The notes: a model not told the origin generated them from the sequence alone. 64,000 nucleotides of DNA from Candidatus Zhuqueibacter pondensis (GCA_034505955.1 JAPDQK010000031.1:2320-66319), one strand, 5' to 3'. Positions 18,970-44,601 are shown, numbered from the stretch's first letter. Made by a program: numbers and translations.

Positions 18970-19177
18970 TATACTGGTTTAGGGTTAGTTTTTGCATGCT
19001 ACCAAACTCGTCTGTCATTCTGGAAGACTGCGTCCGTAGACTACGCCCGCAGGGAATCTTTTTCAGCATCAACTAAGACGTTAGAAATTCACGCTTTACT
19101 TCATGCGTAAAAATATTCCCTACGGGCGTAGCGTCCTGAATGACATTGCAGTGAAATTTTCACCCTAAACGAGTATA
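18970..19177 (+). mobile_element. MITE family 2, copy a (foldback element with TATACTSGTTTAGGGT terminal inverted repeats)
   Basis: tatactggtttagggt...accctaaacgagtata. The interior carries two inverted REP-like units (ctacgcccgcagggaatc / gattccctacgggcgtag). Near-identical inverted copy at 35665-35886 and a shorter copy at 44063-44227. Confidence 0.85.
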
Positions 19178-19332
19178 ACAGGAGTCGAATGGCCGGCAGG
19201 CAAAAAATCCCGAGGGGACCACCGGCACGGTCACAGACTCATCATCGTATCAATCACCAGGAGAGCGGTGCGGAAGTACCCCAGTTATAGTATTACCCTG
19301 AAAAAATTCTCACAACCCCGAAGATTTTCTAA

Positions 19333-19497
19333 CGTGAATTATTCTTAACCAAAAAGGCACGAAGACACAAAGTTTTGATTTTAGAGAATGACTGGCAGAG
19401 TGGCTATGAAAATTCAGTTTTTTCCCTTGAAGCTTGACAAGTCTTTTCTCTTCGTGTTTTTGTGTCTTGGTGGTTTAAGTTTTATGAATAATTCAGG
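19333..19497 (-). mobile_element. MITE family 1, copy B (inverted relative to copy A)
   Basis: The reverse complement aligns end to end with 4117-4280. Confidence 0.85.
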
Positions 19498-19569
19498 CTA
19501 AAGACAAAATGATTAACGATAAAATTATTTTGTCGTCAAATTATTTTGTGGGTTACGGCAAAAGCTGCT

Positions 19570-21888
19570 TTATGAATCAATTTCAAAGACCTTGCCATCC
19601 GGTGCACGCATGAACAAAACCGGCGCGGCCCAGTCTTGATGATCCAGGCCGGTCTTCGTCATGATGTAATGACGTGCTTCCGCGACGGCGGCATCAATGG
19701 AATTGCTTCTGAAGAGTGTCGGATAAAACACTTTGGAAAACCAAAGAGCAGATACATCCAGAATTTTATGCTGCATGGCAACGACCGCGGGCACACCGAC
19801 TTTCACAAGATTTTGTGCGATGCCGGTAAAAGCATTGGTGCTCGAGGCCGCGGCTGTTTCACAGCTGTTCAGAACCACGAGGTTAACGGAACGCTCTTGC
19901 AGCATGATCGCGAGGGTCTCCGCATCCACCTGATTACGTTCTTTCGTTTCAGATTCCAGAAGCAGAAAAGCCCTGCTGGTTTCAACATCAAATTCGCCGT
20001 GGCCGATGAAATGCAAAACATGTGGATGATGTTTCAATTCCTCCGCCAATTTCTCCGGGGTGGCATTTTCACAAAATCTCAAACGAATATCCCCGGCCCA
20101 GCGGTACGGGCGGAGTGATTTCTTGATTATTTTCTTTTCCCGTTCGACATCCAACGGCGGCAAATCCAAAGGCGCCGCAATGACCACCAATATTTTCAGG
20201 GGAATGCGGAATCGGCGTTTGGGAATGGGTTGTTCGACTTTCAAATAGCGTGTCAGGGAGATGCGCTTGTGAAATGCCATGAAACCCGGCGGCAACTCGG
20301 CACTGCGCAGAAGTTCCCAGGGCAGACAAATCAATTCCGCCGGATCTATTCTCAATTGAAGACGCAGGATTTTCTCTTCGTGCTTGGCGTCCTGGATGCT
20401 CGCCTTCAGAATATTGTAAACCTTCTCGTGAAAAAGGGCATTAAAGAGTTTTGTACCCATCCATTCGAGCTCGTCACGGCTCGCGCGCAAGTCTCGGACT
20501 TTGCGGAGCGTTTCCAGGAAATTTTCCTCCTCCAGGAATGATTGAAAAGTTAAATTGCCCTCCTCTTCGCCGACCGAAGATTCGAAAACATGGATCGGAT
20601 AAATTCCGTCTTGACTTTCCAAAATGCCGACACCCAAATTCTTGTAATTCGGCTGCGGTGCCGTCATCATACGATAATATTTTGCGCGCACGACCAACAT
20701 GCTGACATTGAACGCGGAAAGGGGCACGACCAACCCCAGCCATTGACGATTCAAATTCAACAACAGAAAAATGAGCAAAATAAACAACAGGCTGCCGGTG
20801 ATAAAGATCCATCGGGTTTTGCGCCATTTTTTGGCCAAACGCGGCGTGACAAACAACAACCAGATCAAACCAAGGAAAACCAGCAAAGCACTGTAGAAGG
20901 CCGGATCTGAAAGAACGCGGGCCTCAACCGGGCGATTGAGCAAAAGCTGGCTGACGAGCGAGGCGAGAATCGCCCAACGCGGATAAGGTCCGACAGGACA
21001 TTGCACCGGGGTCTCAGCCGAGGGATTGACGATCAGGACAATTTTATCGCGATAGTGGTGGGAGTTGGATTGAAAATATTGGGTCGTATCCTTCCAGGGA
21101 TAGTGATAGTAAAACGGCTGGAATTCTTCAACGGGTATGAAATTCACCAGCAATTGCCCGTCGCCGTCCAAATTTTGCTCGATCATGCGAAACAGGCTGT
21201 CCGGTGGCTTGAAATAGTGTTGCGCAATTTCAACCGGAAGAGACGCATAACATTTCCGGTTGCCTTGAAAGGTCAGGACCGGAGGAAAATGATGGTATTC
21301 CGAGATCAGCGAATTGATATACCCGACATGCTGCGTCACGAGAAAAAGACTGTCATAAGGCAGATCAACCCCTCGATCGGCAATATTCATGGGAAGGAGA
21401 TTACGACAGGCGGCCTCCGGAAGCGCCAGCCGTGCGAAGTGCTCGAGTTTCCTCATGATGGCAGGTGTCATCTCGTGAGGCGAGGGGCTCCAATCCCCCG
21501 CGAAGTCGATGGACAAGATGACTTCAGGACATTCGGCCACACTTCGTGCGAGCGCTTGATCTCCTTGTCGATCATCCTCATGCTCGCCAACGAAACGGAT
21601 GTCGAAGGCAATCCATTTCGCGCCGGCGTGGTGGAGCTGGCGGATCATTCTGGCATAGTCCGATCGGCGAAGGCGCTCATGCGGATCATCGCAGTCAAGT
21701 ATGACAAGATCAGGGTGAGGACGAAGGGTCGGATGGAAAAAGATGTCATAGAACGCCATGTCGATGCTTTTGGTCAGGGTGCGGGTTGGGGACAGCCATT
21801 TCACAAAGACAGCAATGACCAACGTTGCCGCCAGGCTGCATGCAAACCCGATCATTATAAGCTGCAATTTTTTGCTGATCGGTAACAC
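19570..21888 (-). CDS. CHASE2-like membrane sensor fused to a CHAT (caspase-like) protease domain
   Basis: 772 aa. One N-terminal TM helix, a ~300-aa extracytoplasmic region (DLVILDCDD...WIAFDIRF, a divergent CHASE2 signature), then three TM helices (res ~330-400). Cytoplasmic CHAT domain with His (HVLHFIGHGEF) and Cys (VVLNSCETAAAS) dyad. GTG start with AAGGAG RBS directly after the upstream stop. Confidence 0.8.
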   Translation of the reverse strand: MLPISKKLQLIMIGFACSLAATLVIAVFVKWLSPTRTLTKSIDMAFYDIFFHPTLRPHPDLVILDCDDPHERLRRSDYARMIRQLHHAGAKWIAFDIRFVGEHEDDRQGDQALARSVAECPEVILSIDFAGDWSPSPHEMTPAIMRKLEHFARLALPEAACRNLLPMNIADRGVDLPYDSLFLVTQHVGYINSLISEYHHFPPVLTFQGNRKCYASLPVEIAQHYFKPPDSLFRMIEQNLDGDGQLLVNFIPVEEFQPFYYHYPWKDTTQYFQSNSHHYRDKIVLIVNPSAETPVQCPVGPYPRWAILASLVSQLLLNRPVEARVLSDPAFYSALLVFLGLIWLLFVTPRLAKKWRKTRWIFITGSLLFILLIFLLLNLNRQWLGLVVPLSAFNVSMLVVRAKYYRMMTAPQPNYKNLGVGILESQDGIYPIHVFESSVGEEEGNLTFQSFLEEENFLETLRKVRDLRASRDELEWMGTKLFNALFHEKVYNILKASIQDAKHEEKILRLQLRIDPAELICLPWELLRSAELPPGFMAFHKRISLTRYLKVEQPIPKRRFRIPLKILVVIAAPLDLPPLDVEREKKIIKKSLRPYRWAGDIRLRFCENATPEKLAEELKHHPHVLHFIGHGEFDVETSRAFLLLESETKERNQVDAETLAIMLQERSVNLVVLNSCETAAASSTNAFTGIAQNLVKVGVPAVVAMQHKILDVSALWFSKVFYPTLFRSNSIDAAVAEARHYIMTKTGLDHQDWAAPVLFMRAPDGKVFEIDS

Positions 21889-21900
21889 CGTATCTCCTTG

Positions 21901-24588
21901 TCAGTAAATCCACGCCAGCAAGGCCACCCGGACTTCATCGACTTCGCCGCGCGCCTTGGCGCCATAGCGATCCAGAACAATTCCCCGGACTTCACGGCTT
22001 TGCAGATATTTTTTGAAACTCTTGTCCACAAAATTTTTGACTTTCGCGATCTGTTTTTTGACTTTATCAGAGAGATTCCCGGCTTTCACGTCGGTACGCT
22101 CCTCGGGAAACTGGAGAAGGGTAAAGGCACTGAGAGAATCCCCTTCCAAAATCTGGGCTGCGGCCAAAAGTGCGGCCTCGGATTTGTGCTGGTATTCAAT
22201 CGTATCCTTCGGCGCGAGTCCCGGTTTCATCAGTTGACAGAGTATCGCCAAATTCAGATACGTGCCCCGACTATAACGATTACACTCCAGAGCCTTTTGG
22301 TAAGCCTTTTCCGCCTCGGTAAAATTGCCGGAGATGAATTCGACATTTCCCAAATTATTCCACGCCGGAGCAAAAGTGGAGGAATCCTGCAAAATTTTTT
22401 TGAATTGCTTTCTGGCCCGATCATATTCGTCATTCTGTCCGAGCAAAATGCCATACATGTTTCGTCTTCGGACGGCGTCAAGAGTTGGCAGGCCCGGCAC
22501 CAGCATTCCCTCGACTTGTTGCAGCCATTGCGTTTTCATGGTTTCCATTGCCATCAAGTCTTTTTGCATGGCGGAAGTAAAGTCTGGAACAGGCTTCAGC
22601 GTATCGGAAAGATGAAATACCACTGGTGGATACTTTGCCTGATGGGCCGCCACTTCGTAGATTCGACACGAAGGGTCGATGGCCTCTGCGGCAGTAGTCC
22701 ACGCCTCGCTGAAACTCGATGAGGGGATCATTGTCGTTTCAATCGGTATCCAAAGGGTTTCCCTCCATTTGACAAAAAGCTTCGGTGAAACCGGCAGGCT
22801 TGTGCTCCGCGAAGTGTCAATCCGGGTGTCGAACATCATGAAAATGTGACCGGGCACACTGATCAACGCCGTGGGCAGGCCGGCATTTTGAAGCAGACTG
22901 GCGTACAACACGGCGAGATCGTCACAGTCACCGAACTGTTCTTTTTTACTCAAAAGCTGGGCCGGATATTTAACCATGTCCAACCGGTAATGGGCGCCGC
23001 GAAGGGTGTCTGCCAATGAAGGGAAAGGCGTCACCGGATCCGGGCGATATTTGATTCCATAAGTCTGCAAGGCACAAAAAAGTTTCAAAGCATCGGTCAT
23101 GCGGTAGCGGGAAAACCACTGCGCTACGCCAGGCTCGGATTCTCTTTCGGTGACTTTGTCAACAAATGCCTTTACCAAAGGATCCTCCGGGGTGATGAAT
23201 GCCGCCGCCTTGCCTGGGTCATCCCAGGTCATGTAATTCTTGCCGTACAGCGCAAAATCCACACCTGCCGTAGCAGCATGTTGGTTTCTTTGGTACTCAT
23301 AAGTTACTTTCACTTCACCGGTCAGCCGGCTTTCCCTGGCGTTGAATATTGTAGAGTCGAAAACCGCTCGCAACGGGAAGTCAATGCGGCGTCCCGGCGG
23401 AACAACGACCATGTCTGTCGCCTGCGGTTTGGGCTGCATGTATCGGCTGGCCTGAAATGAAATCGCTGCAATCAATGTGTCGTTGGACACATTCTTGAGT
23501 TTTATGGATCCGACCTTCGCACCTGGCAGCCCATAGTGCTGATATAGAGAGGCGAAGACATTGTCAATATGTGCGCCTTCGATTCTGAGCAAGCGGGGAT
23601 TGTCTTTTAAAATAAGCGATCCGCCGAATTGCTTGTTGGTATTGGGCAGCACCGGCGAATCGGTCAGCGCATAATCGACTGTCACTCCGGGATAATCCTT
23701 CAACGCCTTTTTAAAGCCGAGGCCGAAGGAGAAAGTGGCGTTTTCATCGGTGTGCAAATCCTTTTGCAGTCCGGCCCGCAATGCCAACGTGTGTGCCAGC
23801 CAAAATTCCAACCCCAGGTGTATCCGGTCGTCAAAATCGATGGCCAGGACCGGATCGGAAAGGGGGATTTTTTTGCCTGGCCATTCTTCAAATGGCCGGT
23901 AGCTCAAGCCCCAGCGGATATTCTGACGCTGGATCAACTCTTTTCTTTTGGTTTCATGTTTCACCCACGTTCCACCGCCGGCGTCATGCACCATGAGACC
24001 CCAATTGATTCCCTCGGGTAGATAAGGTACCGCACCCAAATTGTAGAGAATGCCGAAATCCCAGCCCCAGCCGCTGGCGTCAGCTTCGAGGTGTGTGAAG
24101 AGTTTCGGATCAAGTTTCGCTTGCAGCTTCAAATATTTGGCATTCGCCCCGATACTGAGATCACGAAGATGGGGCCAGCTTTGAGGCGGCTTAAAAGCCA
24201 AAGCAAAAGTAAATTGATCGCGTGTAAATTCGAACTCTTCGTCGCCGGTATTTATTCCGGACCAATCCACACCAAAAGCCAGATAATCGGTCAGCGGTGG
24301 GATAAAGTAAACCCGTGAAAGGAAGTTGGCGTAATAACTATCAATATTGAGGCCAAAAAGATCGGCATAATTGAAACTTGCCTGGATATGTTCCATCCGC
24401 GCCAGGCCTGCGGGGTTCCAGGAGATGGCATTGCCGTCATCTGCGACCGCGACAAAGGCTTCGCCCATGCTCAGCGGCCGCGTGCCGACGGGAATCTGGT
24501 TGCGGATCTGCGCGTTCGATGGTTTTGCGAAGAAAAGCAAAGAAGCAAGTGCAAGAATGAATGAGGTGAATTTAGGTGATCGTTTCAT
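21901..24588 (-). CDS. Outer-membrane beta-barrel (PorV/FadL-like, tentative) fused to a transglutaminase-like cysteine protease core and C-terminal TPR repeats
   Basis: 895 aa with a signal peptide ending PSNAQ. Barrel N-terminus with the motif LSMGEAFVAVADDGNAISWNPAGLA. Transglutaminase-like Cys (FGDCDDLAVLYASLL), His (VPGHIFMMF) and acidic (WIPIETT) residues. TPRs (APAWNNLGNVEFISGNFTEAEKAYQKALE...). Confidence 0.75.
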   Translation of the reverse strand: MKRSPKFTSFILALASLLFFAKPSNAQIRNQIPVGTRPLSMGEAFVAVADDGNAISWNPAGLARMEHIQASFNYADLFGLNIDSYYANFLSRVYFIPPLTDYLAFGVDWSGINTGDEEFEFTRDQFTFALAFKPPQSWPHLRDLSIGANAKYLKLQAKLDPKLFTHLEADASGWGWDFGILYNLGAVPYLPEGINWGLMVHDAGGGTWVKHETKRKELIQRQNIRWGLSYRPFEEWPGKKIPLSDPVLAIDFDDRIHLGLEFWLAHTLALRAGLQKDLHTDENATFSFGLGFKKALKDYPGVTVDYALTDSPVLPNTNKQFGGSLILKDNPRLLRIEGAHIDNVFASLYQHYGLPGAKVGSIKLKNVSNDTLIAAISFQASRYMQPKPQATDMVVVPPGRRIDFPLRAVFDSTIFNARESRLTGEVKVTYEYQRNQHAATAGVDFALYGKNYMTWDDPGKAAAFITPEDPLVKAFVDKVTERESEPGVAQWFSRYRMTDALKLFCALQTYGIKYRPDPVTPFPSLADTLRGAHYRLDMVKYPAQLLSKKEQFGDCDDLAVLYASLLQNAGLPTALISVPGHIFMMFDTRIDTSRSTSLPVSPKLFVKWRETLWIPIETTMIPSSSFSEAWTTAAEAIDPSCRIYEVAAHQAKYPPVVFHLSDTLKPVPDFTSAMQKDLMAMETMKTQWLQQVEGMLVPGLPTLDAVRRRNMYGILLGQNDEYDRARKQFKKILQDSSTFAPAWNNLGNVEFISGNFTEAEKAYQKALECNRYSRGTYLNLAILCQLMKPGLAPKDTIEYQHKSEAALLAAAQILEGDSLSAFTLLQFPEERTDVKAGNLSDKVKKQIAKVKNFVDKSFKKYLQSREVRGIVLDRYGAKARGEVDEVRVALLAWIY

Positions 24589-24690
24589 TGAAAAACCGCC
24601 TTGTCCATTGAATGGAATACCAAGGGTGTACAGATACTGTTTAATGGTGGCTCATATTCGAGTATGCCGCACCGCGTCTGCGGTTTTTGT

Positions 24691-27636: not shown

Positions 27637-27667
27637 GATCCTTCCCTGATCATTCTAACAGTGCTCG

Positions 27668-30600
27668 TTATTTCAGCAATGCCAATTTCCGTACTTGTGA
27701 AAATTTGCCGGCTTCGAGGCGGATGATGTAGACGCCCGTGGACAAACTTCGATCGTTTTGATCCCGTCCATTCCATGCCAAGTGATAATACCCGGCCTCC
27801 TGCTGCTTGTCAACAAGGGTAATCACCGATTGGCCGAGCACATTGAAGATCTGCAAGCGAACTCGTGCTTCCACAGGCAGGCCGTAGGCGATTGTGGTTG
27901 CCGGATTTCCCGCGAAGCGCGGGATCTGCGAAAATGGATTGGGATAGTTTTGTGACAAAAAGAATTCCTTCGGAATCTTTTTTATCAAGCTGATTCGCGC
28001 CGATGCCTCCATGACAGGGCCATCGTTCACGGAGAATTTTTTCAATTCCAACAAGCTGCTCTCACCCACCTTGCCCGTAGCCCGAAAAGTGACAATCGCA
28101 ACTTCCCCGGCGCTGGGGGCCGGGCCAACACTTGACAATACGGCTTCCAGTCGTCCGGGCTTTTGCTGATAGTTCAGCTTGCCGGTTTCCAGAGGTTTGC
28201 ATTTGGCGACGGCAAGCATTTCAAGTTGCGTCGGATCGAAGGCCAAATCAATGCGAGCGGAATATATTCGCTGCTCGGGTGCGATCCTTAATGGCAAATT
28301 AAAAACTTCTCCAGGAGCAACCTCCAGGTCATGCAGGAATGGATAAATCGTCTGATTGGACTCAGTGGCGATCCGAGAACTCGACGACGGTATCCAGTTC
28401 CCGTCTATATCTCCTAAAAGCAAGGCAACAAAATCCTGGCTTTGATTTGAATTGAGCGACTGATAAGTTTTGCAAACAGGGTCGAAACGCCATTGCCCGG
28501 TGTAACCGACACCCAATTGCACTTGGCCACCAATAAAATGCTTGAGCAAAGTGCTATCTTCCGGATCGACAATCTGGTTTTGGTTAACGTCAGCCAACAG
28601 ACTTTGCCAATTGTTCAGCGGTTGTCCCGAAAAATGTTTTCGCAACAAAGTCAAATCCGCGCTATTTATTGCCGAGCCGATGCCACCGGTCTTGGAAGGA
28701 GTAACAATGTAAGTGTTGCCACCGAGAACACCCAAGAACCGATAGATACCGTCGGCGGCTGTCGTAAGTTTATCAAAGCTGCCTCCGTCCAGCGTGACTT
28801 CAGTGTTTCCAACCGGTATGCCGGTTGATTGGGCATATCTGACGGTTCCGGTTATATCAAAATGAGCACAGGTTGTCGTGTTTTCGAGACTCGCGCCAAG
28901 ATTGGCGTCTCCGTTGACATCGCCATACAGAATTCCGACAAAATTCAATCCCTGAAAGTTATAATTTTGTAAGACAAATGTCAAGTTGTCCGTAGGGGTG
29001 GCAACTTTGCTGGGATCGACACTGGTAATCGGGTCGATGAAAATCCAGTCTTTCCCAACCGGAAATCGGTCACAAGGAGATTTGCGATTGTTTATTCTCG
29101 TAACATCATTTAGAGTTACGCTACCACTACCATCGACATCAGCAGCGATTCTGGCGTACACTTCTTCGTTATTTCCTGTACAGGAGCCTTGACGACCAGG
29201 CTGAGTATCGGCTAAGTCCATAGCCCTGTTTACATCATCAGAGCTAATGGCATTAACAGGGACACCGGAATGGGTTACAGTAATCTTGTAAGTGCCGGCG
29301 TCGCTCTTCATCGTGTGGAATACAAATTCTCCATTCGAACCCGTGGTTTGGGAATCTCTCAGCCTGCCCTGTGTCACCAGCTTCACCCTCGCCCCTTGCA
29401 CGCGTTTCGCATCGAGGTTGAAGTATTTGATCGCGCCCCGAACCTCGAACGATTCAAGCGGCTCCCACTTAAAATCAAGCTGCCGAGTCACGCGGTTTCC
29501 TCCTCCTTGTCCTTCATACCAGGAAAATTCAAACTTGATAGCAGGCGCTTCCGTGCCCAGAAACGGTACTTTGGTGACAAATTTAAACACAGGGGGTGGC
29601 TCCATCATAGTTGGTTGATTAGGAGCCAGATCACCATAAAAAAGGGTAGACCCTGTTATATCATATTCTATCAGATCGTGATTGAAATCCAGGACCCTGC
29701 CTGTGATGGTTGCCGCTGTTGCCCCGCTTTGCAGGATATGTTTCAACTGGTGCGCTATTTGTAACAAGGTGTCCTGACATTGGATCACGAGGGTCGGCAC
29801 GATATTGATCATTTTGAGGGAAACATTGTCACCAGGCAGCCCGAAGACAACATTGGTAACATTGTCCGAAGGCGGAGTGGCAGCCACGTTCATCTCGAAG
29901 CTCTTTTGCAGCCCGGGAGAGGTTTTCTGAATGACCAGCAGAATAAAATGGAGTGTATCCGGCAGAGGCGCGTTCGCAGCGGTGAACTCATAAATGTCAT
30001 TGGAAAATACCGAATCGCCGGGAGCGATGTTATTAAAGGTGGAAACACTATCCGGGCCGATGGTAATGGTTGGCTCAAAAGTTTTCAATATGGAAAAGAG
30101 CGGGCCGGTGTCTTCGGAGCCGTAATTTTTTAGTCTTATTTTCAGCGCAATCTTTTCGCCCGGGTTGACGACGCCGTTGGCCTCACCATTGACGACCGTT
30201 TCTGTTATGGCGCTGCCGGCATACTCGAGGTCAAGCCCTTTAGTCCCCTTGTTCGGCGTGGCGAGCGCCTCGAAAAAGGCACAACCAAGATTTTCGCTGA
30301 TCTCATTGTGTCCGGCCAGGCCATTGCCACCTCGAAGGATTTCATCAAATTCGCGCGGATCGGGCCGGCGTTGCCAGGATTTCAGCAAGCTATGCTGCGA
30401 AAGAGGCGAACATTTCCCCAGAGGAATCATCGCTATACCATGAAATATTGGAATGACCCGTTCCCCATCACTGCCGTAAACTGAGGGAATGGCGTCAGCA
30501 TCCATGCCATCAATGGCCAGGCCGGTTTTGTTAATTTCCTCACCGGATCGTGGAGTTGAATTCCAAACCACATAGTCGACGTCATCCACGAGATCGCTGG

Positions 30601-33217
30601 AATCAGCCGCAACCCATTTGAAAAGGATAACCACATCATTCGAATCTTTCAAACCAATGGTGCCGCTGCCGAGCTTGTCAACGACCATATTGTTGCCCAC
30701 ATTGAAATCGGTATCGAAGATTTCATAAGTCGGCTTCACGCCATATCGCTTAAAAAACCTGTCGGCGCGAAAGGCAATGGTTTGGTATTGGCGCGGGCCG
30801 ATTTTCGCGCCATCGGGGAAGTGAACAAAGAAATCATCCTCGTCCACCTCCAGGGAATCACGGCCCTTGACGATACGGGTGTAGCTGTTTCTCCGTAATT
30901 TGCCATTCGGCATTCTATAATCACCATTATCGGCCAGAAAGTAATTGGCAAGCTCAATTGTTTTTGAGGAAGAAGGATTAAAGATTTCAATGAACTCAGC
31001 CGAAGCCGGCCACACACAAACTTCCGAAATCAGCAAATGCTCCTGAGGCAAAAAAGGGCCGGGCCCAACAGGATTTCTGAAGCCAATGGAAGGTTTGGTG
31101 CGGCTGATAAAGCTGCCAGGATCTGTCAGGATGCTGCCGGTAGAGTCGGGATTGAGTTCGTAAGAAAATCCTTCCTTCGCAAAGGCAACAAATTTGCCTT
31201 TCGGCCACAGCCTGGCTTGTACGGCAATGTTTTCAATCTTTGTCACACGACCGCCAATTTGGATGAAATCAACCATGCGGCAGGGCTCGTCAAAACCGGC
31301 AACTTCACCCGTCGTGATCTGCTGCACCAGCGCGATCGCAAACGGAAAGGTGTTGATGTTCCCGGGACCTCCCAAAGTCATGTTGGTTGCCGAAGTACTG
31401 TTATTCCCCCAAAATCGAAAAGGTTCTAAAACTAAAGTTTTGGAAGGCAGACCTGTGAATACATTTCCTCGATCGTTTTTACCTTGCCCCAGCCAGTGAA
31501 CCACTAACAGACCACCCGGCGCCAATCGAATGCCCTGGGGAAATGCCCAGTAAGTATCCAGCACACCACGCCTGATCCACAGCGCAAAACCATCCAGTGA
31601 AATCGTGTCGGCTGTGCTAATATTCTTCAATTCGATCTTTTCTGTGCCGAATTCAAATCGTAAACCTGGGCCCTGTCCCAAAGTGTCCACAACAAAGTCA
31701 TTGAAATTGGGATCATACAGGATTTCATTGATGACGACCTCATGAATGCTGGGGAACGCAGAAATCGTAAGGGAATCGACACCAACGGCTTGGTTGCCAA
31801 GAGCATCAACCACAGTGCAAGATGCGATCAATTTATTATTACCGGAAGACAATGGCACCCTCACCATCACCATGGTGTCAGAGCTGGCCGGCTGAATGCC
31901 ATTCACATTATATTGAATCGTGTAGGGAGGAATACCACCGGTTATGCGAGTGACCGCGGTGACGGTGACACTGTCGTCACAGACAAATGCACTATCACGC
32001 GGGGAAATAATGGTGAGCTGACATGACAGGTTTTCTTCGAGACTGAAGAGATAAACGGCTCCGGCGTTGGATGCTTCCGTATCGTCGAAAGGTGCCCCGA
32101 TCAAGACTTTGTTACCAACGGCTGCTATTGAGTATCCGAACTTGTCTTCGGTGGCAGGAGTCGGGTTCTGGAAAGTTCCAAGCAGCGTGCCAGTCGCAGC
32201 ACTGAAACGGTGGACAGCCCCGGCGTCGGTTGCGCCGGCGTCATCGCTGGGCGCTCCAATGAGAATCATGTCACCAATTGTTGTAATCGCAGCACCGAAT
32301 TCATCTCCGGTATCAGGAGTGGGATTCGGAAAATTTTCGAGCACACTTCCCGTGGTGGCATCAAAGAGATAAACCACTCCAGCACCGGTTGCACCCATGT
32401 CATCAAAAGGCGCTCCGAGGAGAACGTTGTCACCAAAGGCTGCGACGGAAAAGCCCAATCCGCTGCCGCCAACTCGAGGCTGATTCATGAAAATGTTCAT
32501 CAATTGACCGCTGTAACCATCAAAGAGATAAGCAGCGCCGGCGTCGGTTACTGCTTTGTCACGATCGAAAGGTGCTCCAACGACGAAGTTGCTGCCAACA
32601 GCAGTAAGGGAATATCCGAAGCGATCACCGCCACCCGGAAACGGATTGGGGATCGTTAGGAGACGTTCACCGGTAGTGGCATCGAATACATAGACCGTTC
32701 CGGCATCAGGAGCGCTGGTGTCATCAAAAGGGGCTGCAATGATGATCTTGTTACCAACAACAGCGATCGAAGAGCCAAAGCGATCGAACACATTTGGAAA
32801 CGGATTCCGGATGGTCAGAAGTTGCTCGCCGGAGGTACCATCGAAAAGATAGACCGCACCGGCATCTGTTGAATCCGTATCGTCAAATGGCGCTCCGATA
32901 AGGATCTTGCTGCCGAGCGTGGCGACTGAGTAGCCGAATTGGTCATCGTTGTCAGGAGTCGGATTCAGAAAAGTCCGCAGGTGCGCGCTGGTTCCGCCAT
33001 CAAAGAGATATGCGGCTCCGGCTATGATTTCGCCGATAGTGTCGCCGGGCGCGCCGATGAGGAGATTATCATCAACGGTCGTGACCGCATAACCGAATCG
33101 GCCCGAGGCCGTGCGATTAGGGCTGAAGAACGTTTGCAGCGGCTGTGGCATTTGCGCCAGCGCATGGCCGGCAAGCACGAATAAGGCCGCAAGAACGAGG
33201 AAAGTTGTCTTGTTCAT
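27668..33217 (-). CDS. Giant secreted surface protein: 7-bladed FG-GAP (integrin-alpha-like) propeller, two lamin-tail domains, CARDB/Ig-like and carboxypeptidase-regulatory-like domains, dockerin-like Ca-binding loops, a cohesin-like domain and CTD
   Basis: 1849 aa with signal MNKTTFLVLAALFVLAGHALAQ. Seven FG(Y/S)S(V/I)A..G..(L/I)IGAP.DD....DAGAVYLFD repeats. LTD motifs VVINEILYDPN and LLISEVCVWPASAEFIEIFNPS. DVDGSGSVTLNDV and DVNQNQIVDPED loops. Cohesin-like LEVAPGEVFNLPLRI...IDLAFDPTQLE. CTD NYPNPFS...IFNVLGQSV...WNGRD...GVYIIRLEA...KLALLK. Confidence 0.8.
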   Translation of the reverse strand: MNKTTFLVLAALFVLAGHALAQMPQPLQTFFSPNRTASGRFGYAVTTVDDNLLIGAPGDTIGEIIAGAAYLFDGGTSAHLRTFLNPTPDNDDQFGYSVATLGSKILIGAPFDDTDSTDAGAVYLFDGTSGEQLLTIRNPFPNVFDRFGSSIAVVGNKIIIAAPFDDTSAPDAGTVYVFDATTGERLLTIPNPFPGGGDRFGYSLTAVGSNFVVGAPFDRDKAVTDAGAAYLFDGYSGQLMNIFMNQPRVGGSGLGFSVAAFGDNVLLGAPFDDMGATGAGVVYLFDATTGSVLENFPNPTPDTGDEFGAAITTIGDMILIGAPSDDAGATDAGAVHRFSAATGTLLGTFQNPTPATEDKFGYSIAAVGNKVLIGAPFDDTEASNAGAVYLFSLEENLSCQLTIISPRDSAFVCDDSVTVTAVTRITGGIPPYTIQYNVNGIQPASSDTMVMVRVPLSSGNNKLIASCTVVDALGNQAVGVDSLTISAFPSIHEVVINEILYDPNFNDFVVDTLGQGPGLRFEFGTEKIELKNISTADTISLDGFALWIRRGVLDTYWAFPQGIRLAPGGLLVVHWLGQGKNDRGNVFTGLPSKTLVLEPFRFWGNNSTSATNMTLGGPGNINTFPFAIALVQQITTGEVAGFDEPCRMVDFIQIGGRVTKIENIAVQARLWPKGKFVAFAKEGFSYELNPDSTGSILTDPGSFISRTKPSIGFRNPVGPGPFLPQEHLLISEVCVWPASAEFIEIFNPSSSKTIELANYFLADNGDYRMPNGKLRRNSYTRIVKGRDSLEVDEDDFFVHFPDGAKIGPRQYQTIAFRADRFFKRYGVKPTYEIFDTDFNVGNNMVVDKLGSGTIGLKDSNDVVILFKWVAADSSDLVDDVDYVVWNSTPRSGEEINKTGLAIDGMDADAIPSVYGSDGERVIPIFHGIAMIPLGKCSPLSQHSLLKSWQRRPDPREFDEILRGGNGLAGHNEISENLGCAFFEALATPNKGTKGLDLEYAGSAITETVVNGEANGVVNPGEKIALKIRLKNYGSEDTGPLFSILKTFEPTITIGPDSVSTFNNIAPGDSVFSNDIYEFTAANAPLPDTLHFILLVIQKTSPGLQKSFEMNVAATPPSDNVTNVVFGLPGDNVSLKMINIVPTLVIQCQDTLLQIAHQLKHILQSGATAATITGRVLDFNHDLIEYDITGSTLFYGDLAPNQPTMMEPPPVFKFVTKVPFLGTEAPAIKFEFSWYEGQGGGNRVTRQLDFKWEPLESFEVRGAIKYFNLDAKRVQGARVKLVTQGRLRDSQTTGSNGEFVFHTMKSDAGTYKITVTHSGVPVNAISSDDVNRAMDLADTQPGRQGSCTGNNEEVYARIAADVDGSGSVTLNDVTRINNRKSPCDRFPVGKDWIFIDPITSVDPSKVATPTDNLTFVLQNYNFQGLNFVGILYGDVNGDANLGASLENTTTCAHFDITGTVRYAQSTGIPVGNTEVTLDGGSFDKLTTAADGIYRFLGVLGGNTYIVTPSKTGGIGSAINSADLTLLRKHFSGQPLNNWQSLLADVNQNQIVDPEDSTLLKHFIGGQVQLGVGYTGQWRFDPVCKTYQSLNSNQSQDFVALLLGDIDGNWIPSSSSRIATESNQTIYPFLHDLEVAPGEVFNLPLRIAPEQRIYSARIDLAFDPTQLEMLAVAKCKPLETGKLNYQQKPGRLEAVLSSVGPAPSAGEVAIVTFRATGKVGESSLLELKKFSVNDGPVMEASARISLIKKIPKEFFLSQNYPNPFSQIPRFAGNPATTIAYGLPVEARVRLQIFNVLGQSVITLVDKQQEAGYYHLAWNGRDQNDRSLSTGVYIIRLEAGKFSQVRKLALLK

Positions 33218-33224
33218 AAAAACC

Positions 33225-35273
33225 TCACCGGATCAACGCCATTTTCTTCGTCACTTGTGTTCCTCCGGCACGCAAGCTGTAGACATACACACCGGCCGCC
33301 ACCTGACGGCCAGATTCATCGCGGCCATCCCACTCGGCGCGATGCGAGCCGGTTGGCAGGTCGGCATCAACCAGCGTGCGCACCAATTGGCCGAGCAGGT
33401 TGTAAATTTTCAGCTCGATCATCCCCGCTGTGGCTGGTTGAACTTCATACGGCGGGACATCGAAGTAAATCGTGGTGGCGCTGCGAAAGGGATTGGGCCA
33501 GTTTTGACTGAGCGCAAAATTTTGCGGCACTGGCGTGAGATCCAGAACCAAATCAACGCGCCCTTTAAGGATCATATCCGATACCACCACATCCGCCCGG
33601 CTGCCTTCCGGACCTTCAAAGGCTATATTCATCGTATTTGTGCCTTCTTGCATATAGCGGATCATATCAATCGTCATTTCACCATGGATCGGCATCGTGA
33701 AAGTATTGTTTGTTTGGCGTCCGGTATTGAGTTCGGCGCTCAAAGTGAATTCGTGACCATTCAGATTCACCACGATACGGCGCACGCCCTGATTATTGAG
33801 GTAGAAGTAACGATCGGCTGAGACCAGCTCCACCTGATACTCGAAGATGCGAAGTTCCGGCCGCAGCGTCAGGAAAACCGGATCATACATGATCTGATTG
33901 CCGCACATGTCGACCACGCGCAGAGAGAATCGAAACGGCTGGGTCTCATCAATGACGGAGGCAACGACATGTACGGGATTGGTATCGCCGGTCGGAAACC
34001 GTGGTATATCAACATTGGCGTTGACAACATCCTGGTAGCGCAAAAGGCGAATCCCACTGCCAACATCTTGCGCCACCATCTCAAAACTCTTCGGCGGTCC
34101 GAGATTGATTGCCACCAGCTCACAGGTCGGAGGATCGGAATCGAAGATCGCCGGTATAACGCCGGGCAAAGTGGCAAAGATTGCCTGCGTGACTTGTATG
34201 GAATCTCCGGGTGAGATCGAGAGCGCGTTTTCGCGAGTAGCGCCCCAGAAATATTGGATCGCATTATCGCCACCCACCAGGCCGGCATTGGGGTCAGCTT
34301 TGGTCGTAACATTTAAATCAGGATGAATTGTATAATCAAAGGCCTTGAAATAGGCCAGCAGCCAGGAGACTTGCTGCATGCGAACCGGCTGAAACGGCGA
34401 TCGCATCAGGTTGGGTGGCGTCAGCCCCGAGCCATAAACATTGTACGCCGGCGGCGCGGCGTTGATGGAATCATTGGCCTCGGCCATATAGAAAGCGAAA
34501 TTGATCCAATCAAAATTAGCTTCATTCTCGCCAAAACTGCTGTTGAGAGCTTTCTCGCTCAGCAGCGGCCCATCATCGCCGGCAACAGCCAAGTCCCAAA
34601 AATAGCGGATACCAATATCGATGGAGCGCTTGCCGGTGTTCTTGACGATCGTGGTGATTTCCACCCATGAGTCGTTGAAGTTGCTGCCATGCACATCGAT
34701 CTGCTGCGTAATTTCCATGGTGTCCGGAACCGAGGCCAGACCCGGCAGCGAATATTTAGTTCTATAGCCGGTGTTGTTCATTCCGGTGATGATCGGCGTC
34801 ATGAAATTGTCTGCGCTCGCGATCGAGTCTTCGTTGAAGAAAACGCTGTCAAGCCAGACGGGATTGAATGGAGCGGCGCTGGTGGCAAACTCGGATTGAA
34901 CATAGTCCCGGTTCGAGCGGTAGGAGCGAATCGTGGTGTAACTGGTGCCGGTTTGACCCTTGCTGCCGCCCACCAGCAGGTCTTGCTTTATTTTCTGTGG
35001 ATTGCTGCGCGCATCTGTCGTGATCGGGTGTTCGGAGCCGGTTCTGACTGAATACAAGCCAACGCCTGCTCCAACAATATCCTCGACCACAATCTCATAA
35101 ACCTGGTTGCCGGCAGTCTTACTAACCTGGCTGAGGTATTTCGCCTTATTTAATTTTTGTGCCTGCGCCGGCAAATTATGCGCCACCGCGACCACAAGCA
35201 CGAGAAGCCAGAAGAGCCCGCGACATGAGCTGCGCAAACAAAGGTGCATTTTCCTGAGCGAGAATACTGGCAT
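33225..35273 (-). CDS. Secreted protein of unknown function with CTD, first gene of the five-gene operon
   Basis: About 682 aa from the ATG at 35273, which has an AGGAGA RBS 7 nt upstream. The ORF track extends to 35369. Signal-like LFWLLVLVVAVAHNLPAQAQ. No motif I can place. CTD NWPNPFRSATTIYF...IYNLLGQLV...WDGRDESGRQVAAGVYVYSLRA...KKMALIR. Confidence 0.7.
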   Translation of the reverse strand: MPVFSLRKMHLCLRSSCRGLFWLLVLVVAVAHNLPAQAQKLNKAKYLSQVSKTAGNQVYEIVVEDIVGAGVGLYSVRTGSEHPITTDARSNPQKIKQDLLVGGSKGQTGTSYTTIRSYRSNRDYVQSEFATSAAPFNPVWLDSVFFNEDSIASADNFMTPIITGMNNTGYRTKYSLPGLASVPDTMEITQQIDVHGSNFNDSWVEITTIVKNTGKRSIDIGIRYFWDLAVAGDDGPLLSEKALNSSFGENEANFDWINFAFYMAEANDSINAAPPAYNVYGSGLTPPNLMRSPFQPVRMQQVSWLLAYFKAFDYTIHPDLNVTTKADPNAGLVGGDNAIQYFWGATRENALSISPGDSIQVTQAIFATLPGVIPAIFDSDPPTCELVAINLGPPKSFEMVAQDVGSGIRLLRYQDVVNANVDIPRFPTGDTNPVHVVASVIDETQPFRFSLRVVDMCGNQIMYDPVFLTLRPELRIFEYQVELVSADRYFYLNNQGVRRIVVNLNGHEFTLSAELNTGRQTNNTFTMPIHGEMTIDMIRYMQEGTNTMNIAFEGPEGSRADVVVSDMILKGRVDLVLDLTPVPQNFALSQNWPNPFRSATTIYFDVPPYEVQPATAGMIELKIYNLLGQLVRTLVDADLPTGSHRAEWDGRDESGRQVAAGVYVYSLRAGGTQVTKKMALIR

Positions 35274-35664
35274 GGTCCGATCTCCTAAAAGTAAATAGGG
35301 GGCAAATCTCCGAACCTCCCAAATTTTAAAAAGAATCTTGTTCAAAGACTTCCTACCTTTTATAGACACAAAAACAGTGAATTCTCTCCTGACTTTAAAA
35401 AAATTTTACCCCTGACTTCAGGTTTACATCGGCGGCCATAAGCTCTACGGCCATGCGTTTCAGAAGCAAACTATGGATAAATTGAGGTGCGGGGGGAAAC
35501 GATCTTGCGCTCTATTTGCTTTTTTACAACGAAAATTAGCTCATCTCAGAGAAGTTAAGGGGAAAAATGTAACAAAATGTACATAACTCGAGCGCAAAAG
35601 TCAAGCTTCAAATCAACTCAGGAACGAGGTTTTTAAATTGGAAAGACAGAAACTTCCTAGTTTT

Positions 35665-35886
35665 TATACTCGTTTAGGGTGAAAATTTCGCTGCGATGTC
35701 ATTCAGGAGGCCTGCGGCTGTAAGCTACGCCCGCAGGGAATCTTTTTACGCATGAAGTAAAGCGTGAATTTCTAACGTGTTAGTTGATGCTGAAAAAGAT
35801 TCACTGCGGGCGTAGTCTACAGACGCAGTCTTCCAGAATGACAGACGAGTTTGGTAGCATGCAAAAACTAACCCTAAACCAGTATA
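35665..35886 (-). mobile_element. MITE family 2, copy b (inverted relative to copy a)
   Basis: tatactcgtttagggtg...accctaaaccagtata. The reverse complement aligns with 18970-19177 apart from a few substitutions and one ~14-nt indel. Confidence 0.85.
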
Positions 35887-44062: not shown

Positions 44063-44227
44063 TATACTGGTTTAGGGTAATTCTTGTATGCTACCAAACT
44101 CGTCTGTCATTCTGGAAGAATCTTTTTTAGCATCAAGTAAAACGTTAGAAATTCAGGCTTTACTTCATGCGTAAAAAGATTCCTCCTGAAAGACATCGCA
44201 GTAAAATTTTCACCCTAAACGAGTATA
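44063..44227 (+). mobile_element. MITE family 2, copy c (shorter, lacks one REP-like unit)
   Basis: tatactggtttagggt...caccctaaacgagtata, same termini and core as copies a and b. Confidence 0.8.
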
Positions 44228-44601
44228 GAGACTGGTTTTGGGCTTGGCGCTTTTAGAATCGTCAATACTAATGGTGAGACACTCAGGATTGGCGCGTTTT
44301 GGTTCTCTTCCAACACCCGGCGCGTGAGCGGATGCAAACAACAGCGCCGGAGGTCTTGAACCTCCCATGAGCTGCAGGTGAAAAAATCCGTGAACGGGGA
44401 TTGAGCCGTTGCATTCGGGATCAAACGATTGAGCTTGGCAATCGTCCTTGTGCCAGTGCAGGCCAAATCGACCTCGCTGAAATTCTTGAGATGGCGTTGC
44501 CGCGGCTCACTCAAATGCAATTTGAGAAAGAACAAAATTTTGCCGGCGCACAGAAAATATAGGTCGCGCAAGAGACAAAAGCAAGAACAAGGTTTTGTCA
44601 A
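44215..44601 (-). pseudogene. N-terminal fragment of a DDE transposase (IS701/IS4-like), truncated at a MITE
   Basis: The 128-aa ORF LHLSEPRQRHLKNFSEVDLACTGTRTIAKLNRL...QSPFTDFFTCSSWEVQDLRR resembles the N-terminal ~100 aa of IS701-type transposases. There is no DDE core, and the reading frame runs into MITE copy c. Confidence 0.4.

Follow-up and report, generated by a model that had tools for sequence, protein, structure and literature searches.

What connects a set of predicted cell-surface proteins with a caspase-like protease in the cytoplasm? The question is raised by five genes of Candidatus Zhuqueibacter pondensis, an uncultured KSB1 organism, that lie co-directionally on the minus strand within the window, the 64,000-nt stretch of DNA that was analysed. 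ORF calling reproduced the five genes given in an earlier note on this DNA, together with the gaps of 7, 31, 102 and 12 nt that separate them from gene 5 to gene 1. All features described below are on the minus strand. Gene 5 (33225..35273) encodes a predicted secreted protein of 682 aa, counted from the ATG at 35273, which is also NCBI's start (the longest ORF, 33225-35369, reaches 35369), and gene 4 (27668..33217) another of 1849 aa. Gene 3 (24691..27636) encodes a 981-aa protein with a Reg_prop double propeller and a PorZ-like architecture; gene 2 (21901..24588), an 895-aa predicted outer-membrane protein with a signal peptide, a PorV-like 14-strand barrel, an Ig-like sandwich, a transglutaminase-like domain and TPRs; and gene 1 (19570..21888), a 772-aa predicted inner-membrane protein that combines CHASE2 and CHAT. 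The 12-nt junction between genes 2 and 1 (21889..21900) reads TGA-CAAGGAGATACG-GTG, and the Shine-Dalgarno sequence of gene 1 does lie within CAAGGAGATACG, directly after the stop codon of gene 2, as had been noticed before. In homologous loci this junction varies between an overlap of 4 nt and a spacing of about 200 nt.

Architecture of the encoded proteins

Gene 1 is predicted to encode a membrane receptor of the CHASE2 type whose output domain is CHAT. Its CHASE2 ectodomain (residues 27-340, 20869..21810) matches PF05226 well above the gathering score (81.1 bits, cut-off 26.3, E 1.3e-22), lies between a single N-terminal hydrophobic segment at residues 7-33 (TM1 about 9-29) and several transmembrane segments clustered at about 328-400, and is combined with an output domain, as in other CHASE2 receptors. 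The latter, a CHAT (caspase-fold) domain predicted to be cytoplasmic (residues 487-758, 19615..20430; PF12770, 112.3 bits, cut-off 24, E 3.9e-32), carries the His/Cys dyad, H630 (19999-20001) and C676 (19861-19863), both invariant in 21 homologues, and is a predicted protease. The GTG start is supported because the N-terminus MLPIxKKL is kept in the 21 homologues, and the 761-aa database version of the protein is probably 11 codons short. Few proteins have the full-length CHASE2-CHAT order: 1.84 billion representatives include about 25 such clusters, and each of those with readable context adjoins a gene 2 homologue. An identity with the cell-division protease HetF was rejected, since the match to NF045509 (87 bits, E 1e-24) covers the CHAT domain only and compares with an equivalog cut-off of 1200. 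The CHASE2 domain of gene 1 is highly divergent and no closer to cyclase-linked CHASE2 domains than is that of an unrelated CHASE2-kinase of the window, which is itself paired with a FecR/LysM protein.

The AlphaFold model of gene 2 (pLDDT 88) begins with a plug motif and a 14-strand β-barrel (residues 28-333, 23590..24507), recognised as PorV/FadL-like by Foldseek and by NF033709. The top PDB matches of the barrel were PorV (8gl6_F, E 2.8e-8, TMt 0.59; 6h3i_F, E 8.6e-8, TMt 0.65), followed by FadL; it shares with the PorV/PorQ family the FadL-like fold, the 14 strands and the N-terminal plug motif, and can be superposed on PorV. Its scores against the NCBIfam models PorV_fam (NF033709, 74.6 bits, cut-off 90), PorV (NF033710, 18.8, cut-off 250) and PorV2 (NF052325, 42.5, cut-off 325) are all below the cut-offs. 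Some homologues carry the NCBI name 'PorV/PorQ family protein', and the family occurs as several paralogues per genome.

The barrel is followed by an Ig-like β-sandwich (residues 334-454, 23227..23589; domain model pLDDT 92.9), for which Foldseek retrieved pilus chaperones and macroglobulin MG domains, by an alpha/beta domain (residues 455-665, 22594..23226; domain model pLDDT 92.9), and by a TPR/helical arm (residues 671-890, 21919..22578) delimited from Pfam TPR matches at 709-783 and the AlphaFold model. A weak NCBIfam match to the anti-phage protein ProA covers residues 385-638. The alpha/beta domain had been described before as a transglutaminase-like Cys-His-acid core. Its predicted model has the papain-like fold shared by transglutaminases, PNGase and the Rad4 TGD, with Foldseek matches, at marginal E-values of 2e-3 to 8e-3, to Rad4 TGD 6ug1_A (probability 0.99), PNGase 3esw_A (0.98) and TG2 9bc2_A (0.69). 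An alignment of 58 family sequences, down to 29% identity, places a candidate triad in canonical order, with C555 (22924-22926) invariant and H581 (22846-22848) and E617 (22738-22740) each at least 90% conserved, the last being Asp in L089. Pfam detected no Transglut_core in the whole protein at E<=0.01, and the domain by itself scored 15.9 bits against PF01841, below the gathering cut-off of 23; 14 of 17 family domain sequences match PF01841 below threshold (best E 1.5e-4), with further matches to DUF553 and Transglut_core2, and a precomputed match to PF01841 exists for the homologue P0076. The fold and the conserved residues of the proposed core are thus retained, a Pfam Transglut_core assignment above cut-off is not, and residues 455-665 are supported by alignment and model only as a distant member of the transglutaminase-like superfamily, and no closer.

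Since the barrel has 14 strands, like PorV, established outer-membrane barrel topology leads us to expect the whole Ig/transglutaminase-like/TPR arm on the periplasmic side. The previous idea that a transglutaminase in the outer membrane acts at the cell surface, cross-linking or trimming the secreted cargo, is not supported.

Genes 3, 4 and 5 have signal-peptide-like N-termini and end in sorting domains of about 80 aa of the type A CTD class, so that secretion by the type IX system (T9SS) is predicted for all three. Their FlgD_ig scores (31.6, 33.3 and 37.5 bits, respectively) exceed the cut-off of 27; against TIGR04183 (cut-off 23), genes 4 and 5 reach 33.2 and 30.0 bits, and gene 3, with 22.0, falls just below. 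Of T9SS components, the part of this genome that was covered, window included, showed CTD proteins and a PorZ-like gene but none of the core genes. In gene 3, Reg_prop propellers (140 bits) precede a C-terminal module (residues 762-981, 24694..25353) made of a pre-CTD domain of about 140 aa and the FlgD_ig/T9SS CTD, and this module is common to the neighbour of the barrel gene in every phylum. Barrel partners match it over its full length (positions about 3-219, 47-240 bits), whereas all other CTD proteins match at positions about 140-217 only (22-46 bits). In KSB1 loci gene 3 lies immediately upstream of the barrel gene. We infer from the module that gene 3 encodes the cognate surface partner of the barrel protein; the tie of gene 2 to CTD proteins is one of genetic linkage. 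Gene 3 was considered as PorZ itself and rejected, as it scores 123 bits against NF052228 (cut-off 260) and has no PorZ_N_b_propeller match, so that the resemblance is architectural only; a better PorZ candidate, carrying the PorZ_N_b_propeller Pfam match, is found in the window at 5205-7511.

Genes 4 and 5, unlike gene 3, have only the generic CTD. Gene 4 matches seven FG-GAP_2 repeats (162 bits), two LTD domains (63), CarboxypepD_reg, Cohesin (28.1), Dockerin_1 (25.4) and the CTD, the last being the only part in common with gene 3, and has homologues at the same position in L001, L002, L087 and L088. In gene 5, about 600 aa without a recognised domain lie between the signal peptide and a T9SS type-A/FlgD_ig CTD, and a search of the PDB found no sequence relative. 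The gene 5 family is confined to contigs of KSB1 type, and gene 2 homologues accompany it on at least 13 of these.

Conservation of the gene set and its linkage to CHASE2

The earlier note had treated the five genes as one system, and a synteny query found them as a unit elsewhere: all five recur in the same order in the KSB1 loci L001 and L002, and the five-gene cassette is present twice in tandem on one 207-kb contig. A core of three genes (propeller-CTD, barrel/Ig/transglutaminase-like/TPR and CHASE2-CHAT) can be followed down to about 31-34% identity in unrelated flanks. Judged from these sequences, the universal core consists of two or three genes rather than five, and genes 4 and 5 can be regarded as KSB1-specific additions outside it. 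The domain assignments of the earlier note, CHAT, CHASE2, PorV-like barrel and TPR, were borne out by profile searches and Foldseek.

The association of the CHASE2 sensor with the barrel gene, also proposed in that note, proved to be conserved more widely than the cassette itself. We surveyed GTDB species representatives from at least seven FCB-group lineages and found 42 barrel-gene loci, phylogenetically non-independent and corresponding to roughly six independent events, with a CHASE2 gene on the same strand at a distance of 1-3 genes (5 in one locus). Nine loci with barrel and partner and adequate flanks have no CHASE2 gene, and CHASE2 was found in none of 19 barrel-less loci. Within ±3 positions of a barrel gene, 34/275 genes encode CHASE2, compared with 1/233 at greater distances (Fisher p = 1e-8), and the linked CHASE2 gene invariably shares the strand of the barrel gene. 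The gene set is thus a conserved unit linked beyond chance, and in other FCB-group phyla the barrel and its partner are linked to CHASE2 receptors whose outputs differ. At least five outputs occur across lineages: CHAT, Guanylate_cyc (nucleotide cyclase), Sigma54_activat (AAA+), HisKA/HATPase and SpoIIE (PP2C phosphatase). Since the CHASE2 gene takes different positions relative to the barrel gene (-2, +1, +2), the linkage appears to have been repeatedly retained, and outputs that are swapped across phyla while the linkage is kept are a classic signature of a shared input. The partner-barrel junction is usually a 4-nt overlap, and the nine loci without CHASE2 suggest that the pair is able to function by itself. 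The TPR arm is longer in CHASE2-linked members of the gene 2 family (median 306 versus 162 residues, p = 4e-4, kinship being ignored).

Resemblance to described systems

The literature that was searched gave no description of this gene set, so that the surface-protein/barrel/CHASE2 module is apparently undescribed, as the earlier note had stated; its parts do have precedents, one of them functional. The gene 2 barrel is structurally nearest to PorV, the T9SS shuttle known, together with the attachment complexes PorV-PorU and PorQ-PorZ, from P. gingivalis and F. johnsoniae, and gene 3, with two Reg_prop propellers and a CTD, resembles PorZ. A CTD protein that stays on a PorV-family barrel is known from PorZ and PorQ (PMC10947112, PMC5562754), an arrangement that gene 3 and its barrel may share. 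Unlike gene 2, PorV and PorQ are barrels only, without the Ig/transglutaminase-like/TPR arm, and have no link to a CHASE2 receptor; the scores of genes 2 and 3 below the cut-offs of the PorV_fam, PorV and PorZ models, the paralogues of gene 2 and the separate PorZ candidate of the window also set the present locus apart. In F. johnsoniae, type B CTD cargo genes are followed by their own PorP/SprF-like barrel genes as cognate pairs of cargo and shuttle, and the C-terminal region of the cargo is specific beyond the generic secretion signal (PMC12618676, PMC9143113). Both features are found here; the present CTDs are, however, type A/FlgD_ig-like, and the gene 2 barrel belongs with PorV/PorQ, is extended by a large arm predicted to be periplasmic, and is linked to a sensor.

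The closest functional precedent, and the only case we found in which experiments support a path from an outer-membrane barrel to CHASE2, is NsrA of S. meliloti, an outer-membrane barrel protein with a large non-surface portion that is needed for the CHASE2 cyclases CyaK, CyaD1 and CyaD2 to perceive an extracellular proteinaceous signal (PMC13001267, PMC7529298). The barrel of NsrA is C-terminal (residues 600-1200), the reverse of the domain order in gene 2, and the likeness is functional, with no evident homology; NsrA also lacks a T9SS partner, is coupled to cyclase output only and belongs to Alphaproteobacteria rather than the FCB group. For the barrel and CHASE2 of the present locus, the corresponding relation is one of conserved gene linkage only. 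The signalling logic proposed below is also that of FecA-FecR-FecI, where a barrel with a periplasmic signalling extension meets the periplasmic domain of an inner-membrane transducer and gives a cytoplasmic output. The contact between FecA and FecR is summarised in PMC5498481. The cassette differs in having no TonB-dependent receptor, no STN domain in gene 2, no FecR and no ECF sigma factor; the Marinimicrobia version of the operon includes an STN-secretin gene.

A T9SS CTD protein as the input of an inner-membrane sensor, tying secretion or surface state to the cytoplasm, is exemplified by PorA, the ligand of the PorXY system (PMC12152298), although PorY is a histidine kinase without CHASE2 and the system has neither a barrel with a periplasmic arm nor a protease output. 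As for the output itself, the CHAT domain of gene 1 resembles those of HetF and SAVED-CHAT in its His/Cys dyad and matches both. Fusions of caspase folds with CHASE2 have been recorded, including cyanobacterial ones and those of EACC2 systems (PMC2853523, PMC8195603), but they differ from gene 1 in having the caspase N-terminal and CHASE2 C-terminal, or in containing Peptidase_C14.

A possible signalling path and its alternatives

Our tentative reading, whose probability falls a little short of even, is that the locus encodes a trans-envelope signalling path leading from a receptor displayed by the T9SS to CHASE2 and the cytoplasmic CHAT domain, by way of the PorV-like barrel with its periplasmic arm. 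Gene 3 would be exported by the T9SS and docked through its C-terminal module on a dedicated barrel, much as PorZ is on PorQ, while the C-terminal arm of the barrel protein would touch the CHASE2 ectodomain in the periplasm; a periplasmic arm fits such a contact better than one at the surface. Events at the propeller, such as ligand binding, contact or loss of the partner, could then be relayed to the inner membrane, where in KSB1 they would activate the caspase-like protease to cleave some target, and in sister lineages lead to cyclic-nucleotide production, to activation of sigma-54 or to phospho-signalling. Genes 4 and 5 could be KSB1-specific secreted accessories, possibly forming a surface scaffold linked by cohesin and dockerin. 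Because the Cys-His-acid triad is conserved, the arm may also be an enzyme, a protease or a transamidase, that possibly processes the partner or the CHASE2 ectodomain during signalling. In favour of this path are the conservation of the cassette, the cross-phylum linkage to CHASE2, the match of the barrel to PorV, the transglutaminase-like fold with its triad, the invariant CHAT dyad, the partner-specific module, the longer TPR arms and the precedents. Against it, the divergence of gene 1 gives no support to barrel-linked CHASE2 domains as a single co-evolving lineage, nine loci have barrel and partner without CHASE2, a pure relay leaves the conservation of the triad unexplained, and T9SS core genes are absent from what was seen of the genome. 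The locus is one form of a conserved module of predicted secreted surface protein, dedicated barrel with an enzyme-like, predicted periplasmic arm and inner-membrane CHASE2 sensor, and points to a protein partner for CHASE2, a sensor domain of largely unknown input.

The same linkage could arise if CHASE2 sensed a separate extracellular cue, such as a small molecule, and controlled the adjacent operon, or were merely co-expressed with it, with no relay through the barrel. We consider this unlikely, although several observations agree with it: a role as a receptor for small molecules has been described for the CHASE2 domain (PMC8195603), the sister outputs (sigma-54 activator, histidine kinase, PP2C, cyclase) are ordinary regulators, and regulators are often encoded beside their targets, the CHASE2 domains do not demonstrably form a single lineage, and barrel and partner occur without them. 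A CHAT protease would, however, be an unusual operon regulator, the linkage has outlasted at least five exchanges of output and persists in several gene orders, which points to the sensor domain rather than the output as the constant partner, the length of the TPR arm tracks the presence of CHASE2, and the CHASE2 cyclases of S. meliloti require an outer-membrane barrel protein for perception (PMC13001267). Rather improbable, in our estimate, is that gene 2 is instead a PorV/PorQ-type shuttle or anchor for gene 3, its transglutaminase-like domain serving to mature, cleave or covalently anchor either cargo or barrel (to the cell wall, for instance), with CHASE2-CHAT either monitoring assembly (quality control, envelope stress) or separate. 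The PorV-like barrel, the cognate module restricted to adjacent partners, the triad, the usual 4-nt overlap and the nine pairs without CHASE2 would all suit such a function, and both cargo that has its own shuttle (PMC12618676, PMC9143113) and PorQ-PorZ (PMC10947112) are established patterns. Yet it leaves the position-specific CHASE2 linkage across phyla unexplained, a periplasmic domain cannot reach surface-exposed cargo after export, and barrel-less Ig/transglutaminase-like/TPR homologues of gene 2 also occur beyond the FCB-group phyla that have T9SS-type CTD cargo, namely in Spirochaetes and Nitrospirae.

Much less probable still is abortive infection, with the surface proteins as sensors of phage contact and CHASE2-CHAT as the trigger of proteolytic cell suicide. 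CHAT proteases are known in defence systems, gene 2 has its weak ProA match, one genome has a tandem duplicate of the cassette, and the L085 genome has, close to an eCIS gene, a decay product related to caspases. A known system of PADLOC-DB was nevertheless rejected, as gene 1 has generic, domain-level CHAT matches only (SAVED_CHAT, 35.6 bits, E 1.2e-9; BovA, 25.4 bits) and genes 2-5 have none. A search of plasmids and phages found no relatives, and the flanks are ordinary metabolic or housekeeping genes rather than defence islands. These readings and the regulated self-destruction proposed in the earlier note become less likely in view of the sister systems, which have housekeeping-type regulators as their outputs.

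The five-gene cassette and its receptor and barrel proteins

The minus-strand operon reported in the earlier note is confirmed. Its five ORFs lie at 33225-35273, 27668-33217, 24691-27636, 21901-24588 and 19570-21888 (genes 5, 4, 3, 2 and 1, respectively), separated by 7, 31, 102 and 12 nt, and the junction between gene 2 and gene 1 reads TGA-CAAGGAGATACG-GTG, as had been claimed. The GTG start of gene 1 is backed by an N-terminus conserved among 21 homologues, and the 761-aa version found in databases is probably too short; gene 5 likely starts at the ATG at 35273, as in NCBI, giving a protein of 682 aa with a signal peptide. The source is a metagenome-assembled genome of candidate division KSB1 (protein matches, 100%), and the flanks of the cassette are ordinary, with a pyrimidine-nucleoside phosphorylase gene downstream and a divergently transcribed M16 peptidase gene upstream. 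Promoter and terminator scans returned sites no more numerous than in shuffled sequence, and since the promoters of this host are probably not of the sigma-70 type, these scans are silent on co-transcription. Rfam and tRNA scans gave no matches. A G+C-rich hairpin at 24666-24684, inside the 102 nt that separate genes 3 and 2, is no terminator for the operon strand because its T-run lies on the plus strand only.

Gene 1 encodes a CHASE2 domain (residues 27-340) and a CHAT domain (487-758), each far over the Pfam cut-off, with an invariant His630/Cys676 dyad in the latter. Its hydrophobic segments match the canonical CHASE2 topology, predicting one N-terminal transmembrane segment, an ectodomain, a transmembrane cluster and a cytoplasmic output. 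The recorded caspase-CHASE2 fusions have the opposite domain order (PMC2853523, PMC8195603), and the CHASE2-to-CHAT architecture is rare, 1.84 billion representatives yielding about 25 clusters (50% identity); among caspase-like proteases, it is a rare example of a membrane receptor coupled directly to a CHAT domain.

In the confident AlphaFold model of gene 2 (mean pLDDT 88), a 14-strand barrel (residues ~67-329) is followed first by an Ig-like sandwich (334-454), then by an alpha/beta domain (458-652) and finally by TPRs (671-890). The best PDB matches of the barrel are PorV of the F. johnsoniae translocon and then FadL. The alpha/beta domain had been called a transglutaminase, which whole-protein Pfam did not report, and a single-sequence PDB search with residues 334-670 found no match. 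As Foldseek on the whole model was swamped by the barrel, the domain was analysed separately, and its own model (pLDDT 92.9) matches Rad4 TGD, PNGase and TG2. Among 58 sequences, down to 29% identity, Cys555 is invariant, while the conservation of His581 and of Glu617 is 90% or higher (one homologue has Asp instead of Glu617). Sub-threshold Transglut_core matches were obtained in 14 of 17 domain sequences, DUF553 and Transglut_core2 being matched too, and a profile of the domain matched one PDB sequence only, a 'Transglutaminase-like domain-containing protein', with which it aligns around the Cys motif. These several independent lines support a distant transglutaminase-superfamily domain, and in this form, based on the triad, the domain model and the sub-threshold matches, the earlier call can be kept. 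The conservation of the triad suggests that the arm carried by the barrel is also an enzyme. In NCBIfam, residues 385-638 (~22675-23436) weakly match the N-terminal end of 'anti-phage protein ProA', a protein of 1903 aa (E 2.5e-9, 35 bits, far under the cut-off), which suggests that the Ig and transglutaminase-like (TG-like) module is also present in a defence protein.

The barrel's cognate partner and the conserved core in KSB1

Genes 3 to 5 have the composition that had been described for them. The architecture of gene 3 is PorZ-like but stays under the PorZ model cut-off, and the window holds a better PorZ candidate at 5205-7511. Gene 3 ends in a 220-residue tail made up of a pre-CTD domain of ~140 aa and the CTD. 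This tail matches full length the proteins encoded beside barrel genes in every phylum, whether their passenger is a Reg_prop or an FG-GAP propeller, while its match to genes 4 and 5, to the other CTD proteins of the window and to the distal CTD genes of the loci is confined to the ~80-aa CTD. Because only barrel-adjacent proteins match the tail full length, gene 3 is the cognate partner of the barrel and genes 4 and 5 are lineage-specific additions. Within the conserved pre-CTD domain, two partner proteins have weak Pfam ZU5 matches (L010 12361-15555, residues 830-899, E 7e-4; Caldithrix L057 4238-7399, residues 816-886, E 5e-5). ZU5-type domains can be autoproteolytic, and this may bear on the processing of the partner.

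Three further genes of the window encode T9SS-type cargo: the PorZ-like protein at 5205-7511 (+), with PorZ_N_b_propeller, Reg_prop and CTD; an enzyme resembling GH18 chitinases that carries a Por_Secre_tail (298-1683, +); and a 680-aa protein with a CTD only (60318-62360, -). This extra cargo suggests an active T9SS in this KSB1 genome. The last of these proteins was considered as a paralogue of gene 5 and rejected, as the two have the CTD alone in common.

More than 60 full-length relatives of gene 2 (34-66% identity) are found in KSB1-type contigs. Among GTDB representatives, six loci (L001-L005 and L008) have CHASE2-CHAT directly 3' of the gene 2 homologue and propeller genes resembling gene 3 on its 5' side. 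In a distant KSB1 genome (34% identity), counterparts of genes 3, 2 and 1 alone are retained, flanked by unrelated genes. The lowest identity of any full-length CHASE2-CHAT recovered was 31%, and this gene has as its 5' neighbour a gene 2 homologue of 32% identity, with a 4-nt overlap. The core is smaller than the five-gene unit proposed in the earlier note and comprises two or three genes. The gene 5 family is confined to KSB1, and on at least 13 contigs it is found together with gene 2 homologues. One 207-kb contig has two complete copies of the five-gene cassette in tandem (L087 and L088; JGI contig Ga0247727_10000079, ~82.6-121.5 kb), and the divergence of these copies, whose gene 2 products are 47% and 62% identical to that of the window, indicates that the duplication of the whole cassette is old.

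The database protein P0062 (858-aa ORF; L085 10001-12577 and L086 2951-5527) consists of the barrel of a gene 2 homologue and the C-terminal two-thirds of a CHASE2-CHAT homologue. As a 'Rosetta stone' barrel-CHAT fusion it was rejected: it is a deletion that joined gene 2 residues 1-355 to gene 1 residues 266-772, and thus evidence for adjacency only. With small gene fragments upstream, its locus looks like a decaying cassette; an eCIS_core gene lies nearby.

Linkage of the barrel family to CHASE2 receptors and its possible meaning

Outside KSB1, the barrel/Ig/TG-like/TPR family is present in Latescibacterota, Gemmatimonadota, Marinimicrobia, Zixibacteria, Eisenbacteria, Calditrichota and Poribacteria. 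The operon differs by lineage, while a gene for a CTD protein nearly always adjoins the barrel gene, usually with a 4-nt overlap. CHASE2 receptors are also encoded in these operons, with varied outputs: an adenylate/guanylate cyclase two genes downstream (Gemmatimonadota, Latescibacterota) or two genes upstream (Marinimicrobia), a sigma-54 AAA+ activator (Caldithrix L057; L015), a histidine kinase (Poribacteria L058), a SpoIIE/PP2C phosphatase (Eisenbacteria L047 and L052) or no recognised output (L007). Linkage was counted with a home-built CHASE2 HMM, and a six-frame HMM search added four CHASE2 genes missed by a simple gene caller. Apart from about 11 barrel loci with flanks too short to judge, a CHASE2 gene on the same strand lies one to three genes away (five genes away in one) in 42 barrel-containing loci and is absent from nine with adequate flanks. 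By position, CHASE2 genes account for 34/275 genes within three of the barrel gene vs 1/233 further out (Fisher p = 1e-8, for loci that are not phylogenetically independent). Despite this non-independence, the variety of outputs and gene orders implies that the linkage was retained on roughly six separate occasions. A single lineage of barrel-linked CHASE2 domains was tested and found unsupported. The stretch after the catalytic acid is mostly 139-165 residues in CHASE2-negative members vs a median of 306 in CHASE2-linked ones, which have longer TPR arms, a difference (p = 4e-4) that is confounded by phylogeny and has exceptions in L058 and L018. In Spirochaetes and Nitrospirae (L060, L062-L066, L068-L078, L080), homologues consist of the Ig/TG-like/TPR part only (query ~330-785), so that the arm stands alone as a module outside the FCB group; a CHASE2 neighbour was found in none of the barrel-less loci (0/19).

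To our knowledge, the inputs of CHASE2, a common bacterial receptor domain, are almost entirely unknown. The best-supported model for the present genes is a relay in which the propeller protein would be exported by the T9SS and docked on its own PorV-like barrel, much as PorZ is on PorQ, the arm of the barrel would extend into the periplasm and contact the CHASE2 ectodomain, and the inner-membrane receptor would drive a lineage-specific output, in KSB1 the CHAT protease, the signal passing inwards. The CHASE2 link proposed in the earlier note is strengthened by these data; the TG-like domain, taken there to act on the secreted cargo, is more plausibly periplasmic than surface-exposed. CHASE2 might instead be an independent local regulator that controls, or is co-expressed with, the adjacent barrel operon, a reading to be set against its retention in operons of at least seven FCB-group lineages, whatever the output. 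The barrel and its partner might also form a pure secretion or anchoring module, as the nine loci lacking a CHASE2 gene could be read, the 42 linked loci standing on the other side. Anti-phage defence is a further, less likely reading, for which the PADLOC matches are to generic CHAT only, and no gene 2 relatives were found in plasmid and phage collections. The relay remains the reading that we prefer. The full claim of a widespread FCB trans-envelope pathway, with a T9SS-displayed propeller receptor on a PorV-like barrel whose arm is a direct and possibly enzymatic CHASE2 input, is tentative and somewhat less likely than not.

The closest functional precedent is NsrA of S. meliloti, an outer-membrane barrel protein (barrel at 600-1200) that CHASE2 cyclases are reported to need to perceive a proteinaceous signal (PMC13001267, PMC7529298). 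No CHASE2 pathway other than this barrel-dependent one is known to have been studied. The closest structural relatives are PorV and PorQ with PorZ, and the closest genetic pattern is the PorP/SprF shuttle gene beside a type B cargo gene (PMC12618676, PMC9143113); a CTD protein serving as sensor ligand is described for PorA/PorXY (PMC12152298). Two known kinds of system are combined here, cargo that has its own barrel and a CHASE2 receptor that takes its input from an outer-membrane barrel, while the predicted periplasmic enzyme/adaptor arm and the protease output are not known to have been described before; our literature search found no paper tying CHASE2 to T9SS, PorV or FG-GAP proteins. The linkage nominates the Ig/TG-like/TPR arm as a protein partner of CHASE2, which would be the first one defined outside rhizobia, and the cognate propeller-CTD protein as its surface input, by which KSB1 would turn a cell-surface event into cytoplasmic caspase-like proteolysis. 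For type IX secretion, the notion that cargo can have a shuttle or anchor of its own now reaches type A-like CTDs from outside Bacteroidota, as well as barrels with predicted periplasmic enzymatic and adaptor domains.

Other gene arrangements deserve mention. At L006 9983-15960, the barrel/TG/TPR gene overlaps by 4 nt the gene that comes after it, which encodes a 1151-aa protein with WD40 and Peptidase_C14 (caspase) domains, and there is no CHASE2 gene. This is a second, independent association of the barrel family with a caspase-fold protease. The Marinimicrobia operon (L021 1626-13171), with a layout repeated in about ten loci, encodes in order an STN-secretin, a CHASE2-cyclase, a 1379-aa FG-GAP CTD protein, the barrel/TG/TPR protein and a ~150-aa protein without a recognised domain. 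The other CHASE2 receptor of the window is a fusion with a Ser/Thr kinase (40494-42806, -) and lies directly 3' of a FecR+LysM gene (42694-43677, -), one more case of a CHASE2 receptor coupled with a predicted periplasmic protein partner. An ordinary overlapping gene pair at 49388-52518 (+), for a histidine kinase of GAF type and its neighbour, a response regulator that depends on sigma-54, indicates that this genome uses sigma-54 signalling.

Repeats around the cassette

A palindromic element of ~205 nt that carries terminal inverted repeats (TATACTGGTTTAGGGT...ACCCTAAACGAGTATA) is dispersed over the window, at 18970-19178 (+), 35659-35886 (-) and 44075-44233 (+, both inner-stem arms missing), with a fragment at 45732-45774. 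It folds as a single long hairpin (-77.6 kcal/mol, z = -7.2), has no match in Rfam and looks MITE/REP-like. Two inverted copies, 97% identical over 163 nt, flank the cassette and were considered as a sign of a mobile or invertible unit; this was rejected because the element is dispersed, with a further copy at 44.1 kb, and gives no evidence of cassette mobility. Two further short intergenic repeat families, one of which adjoins the palindromic element, are represented by an inverted pair (4114-4288 vs 19325-19500, 94-97%) and a direct pair (3992-4039 vs 45871-45918, 85%); the intergenic regions of this genome are repeat-rich.
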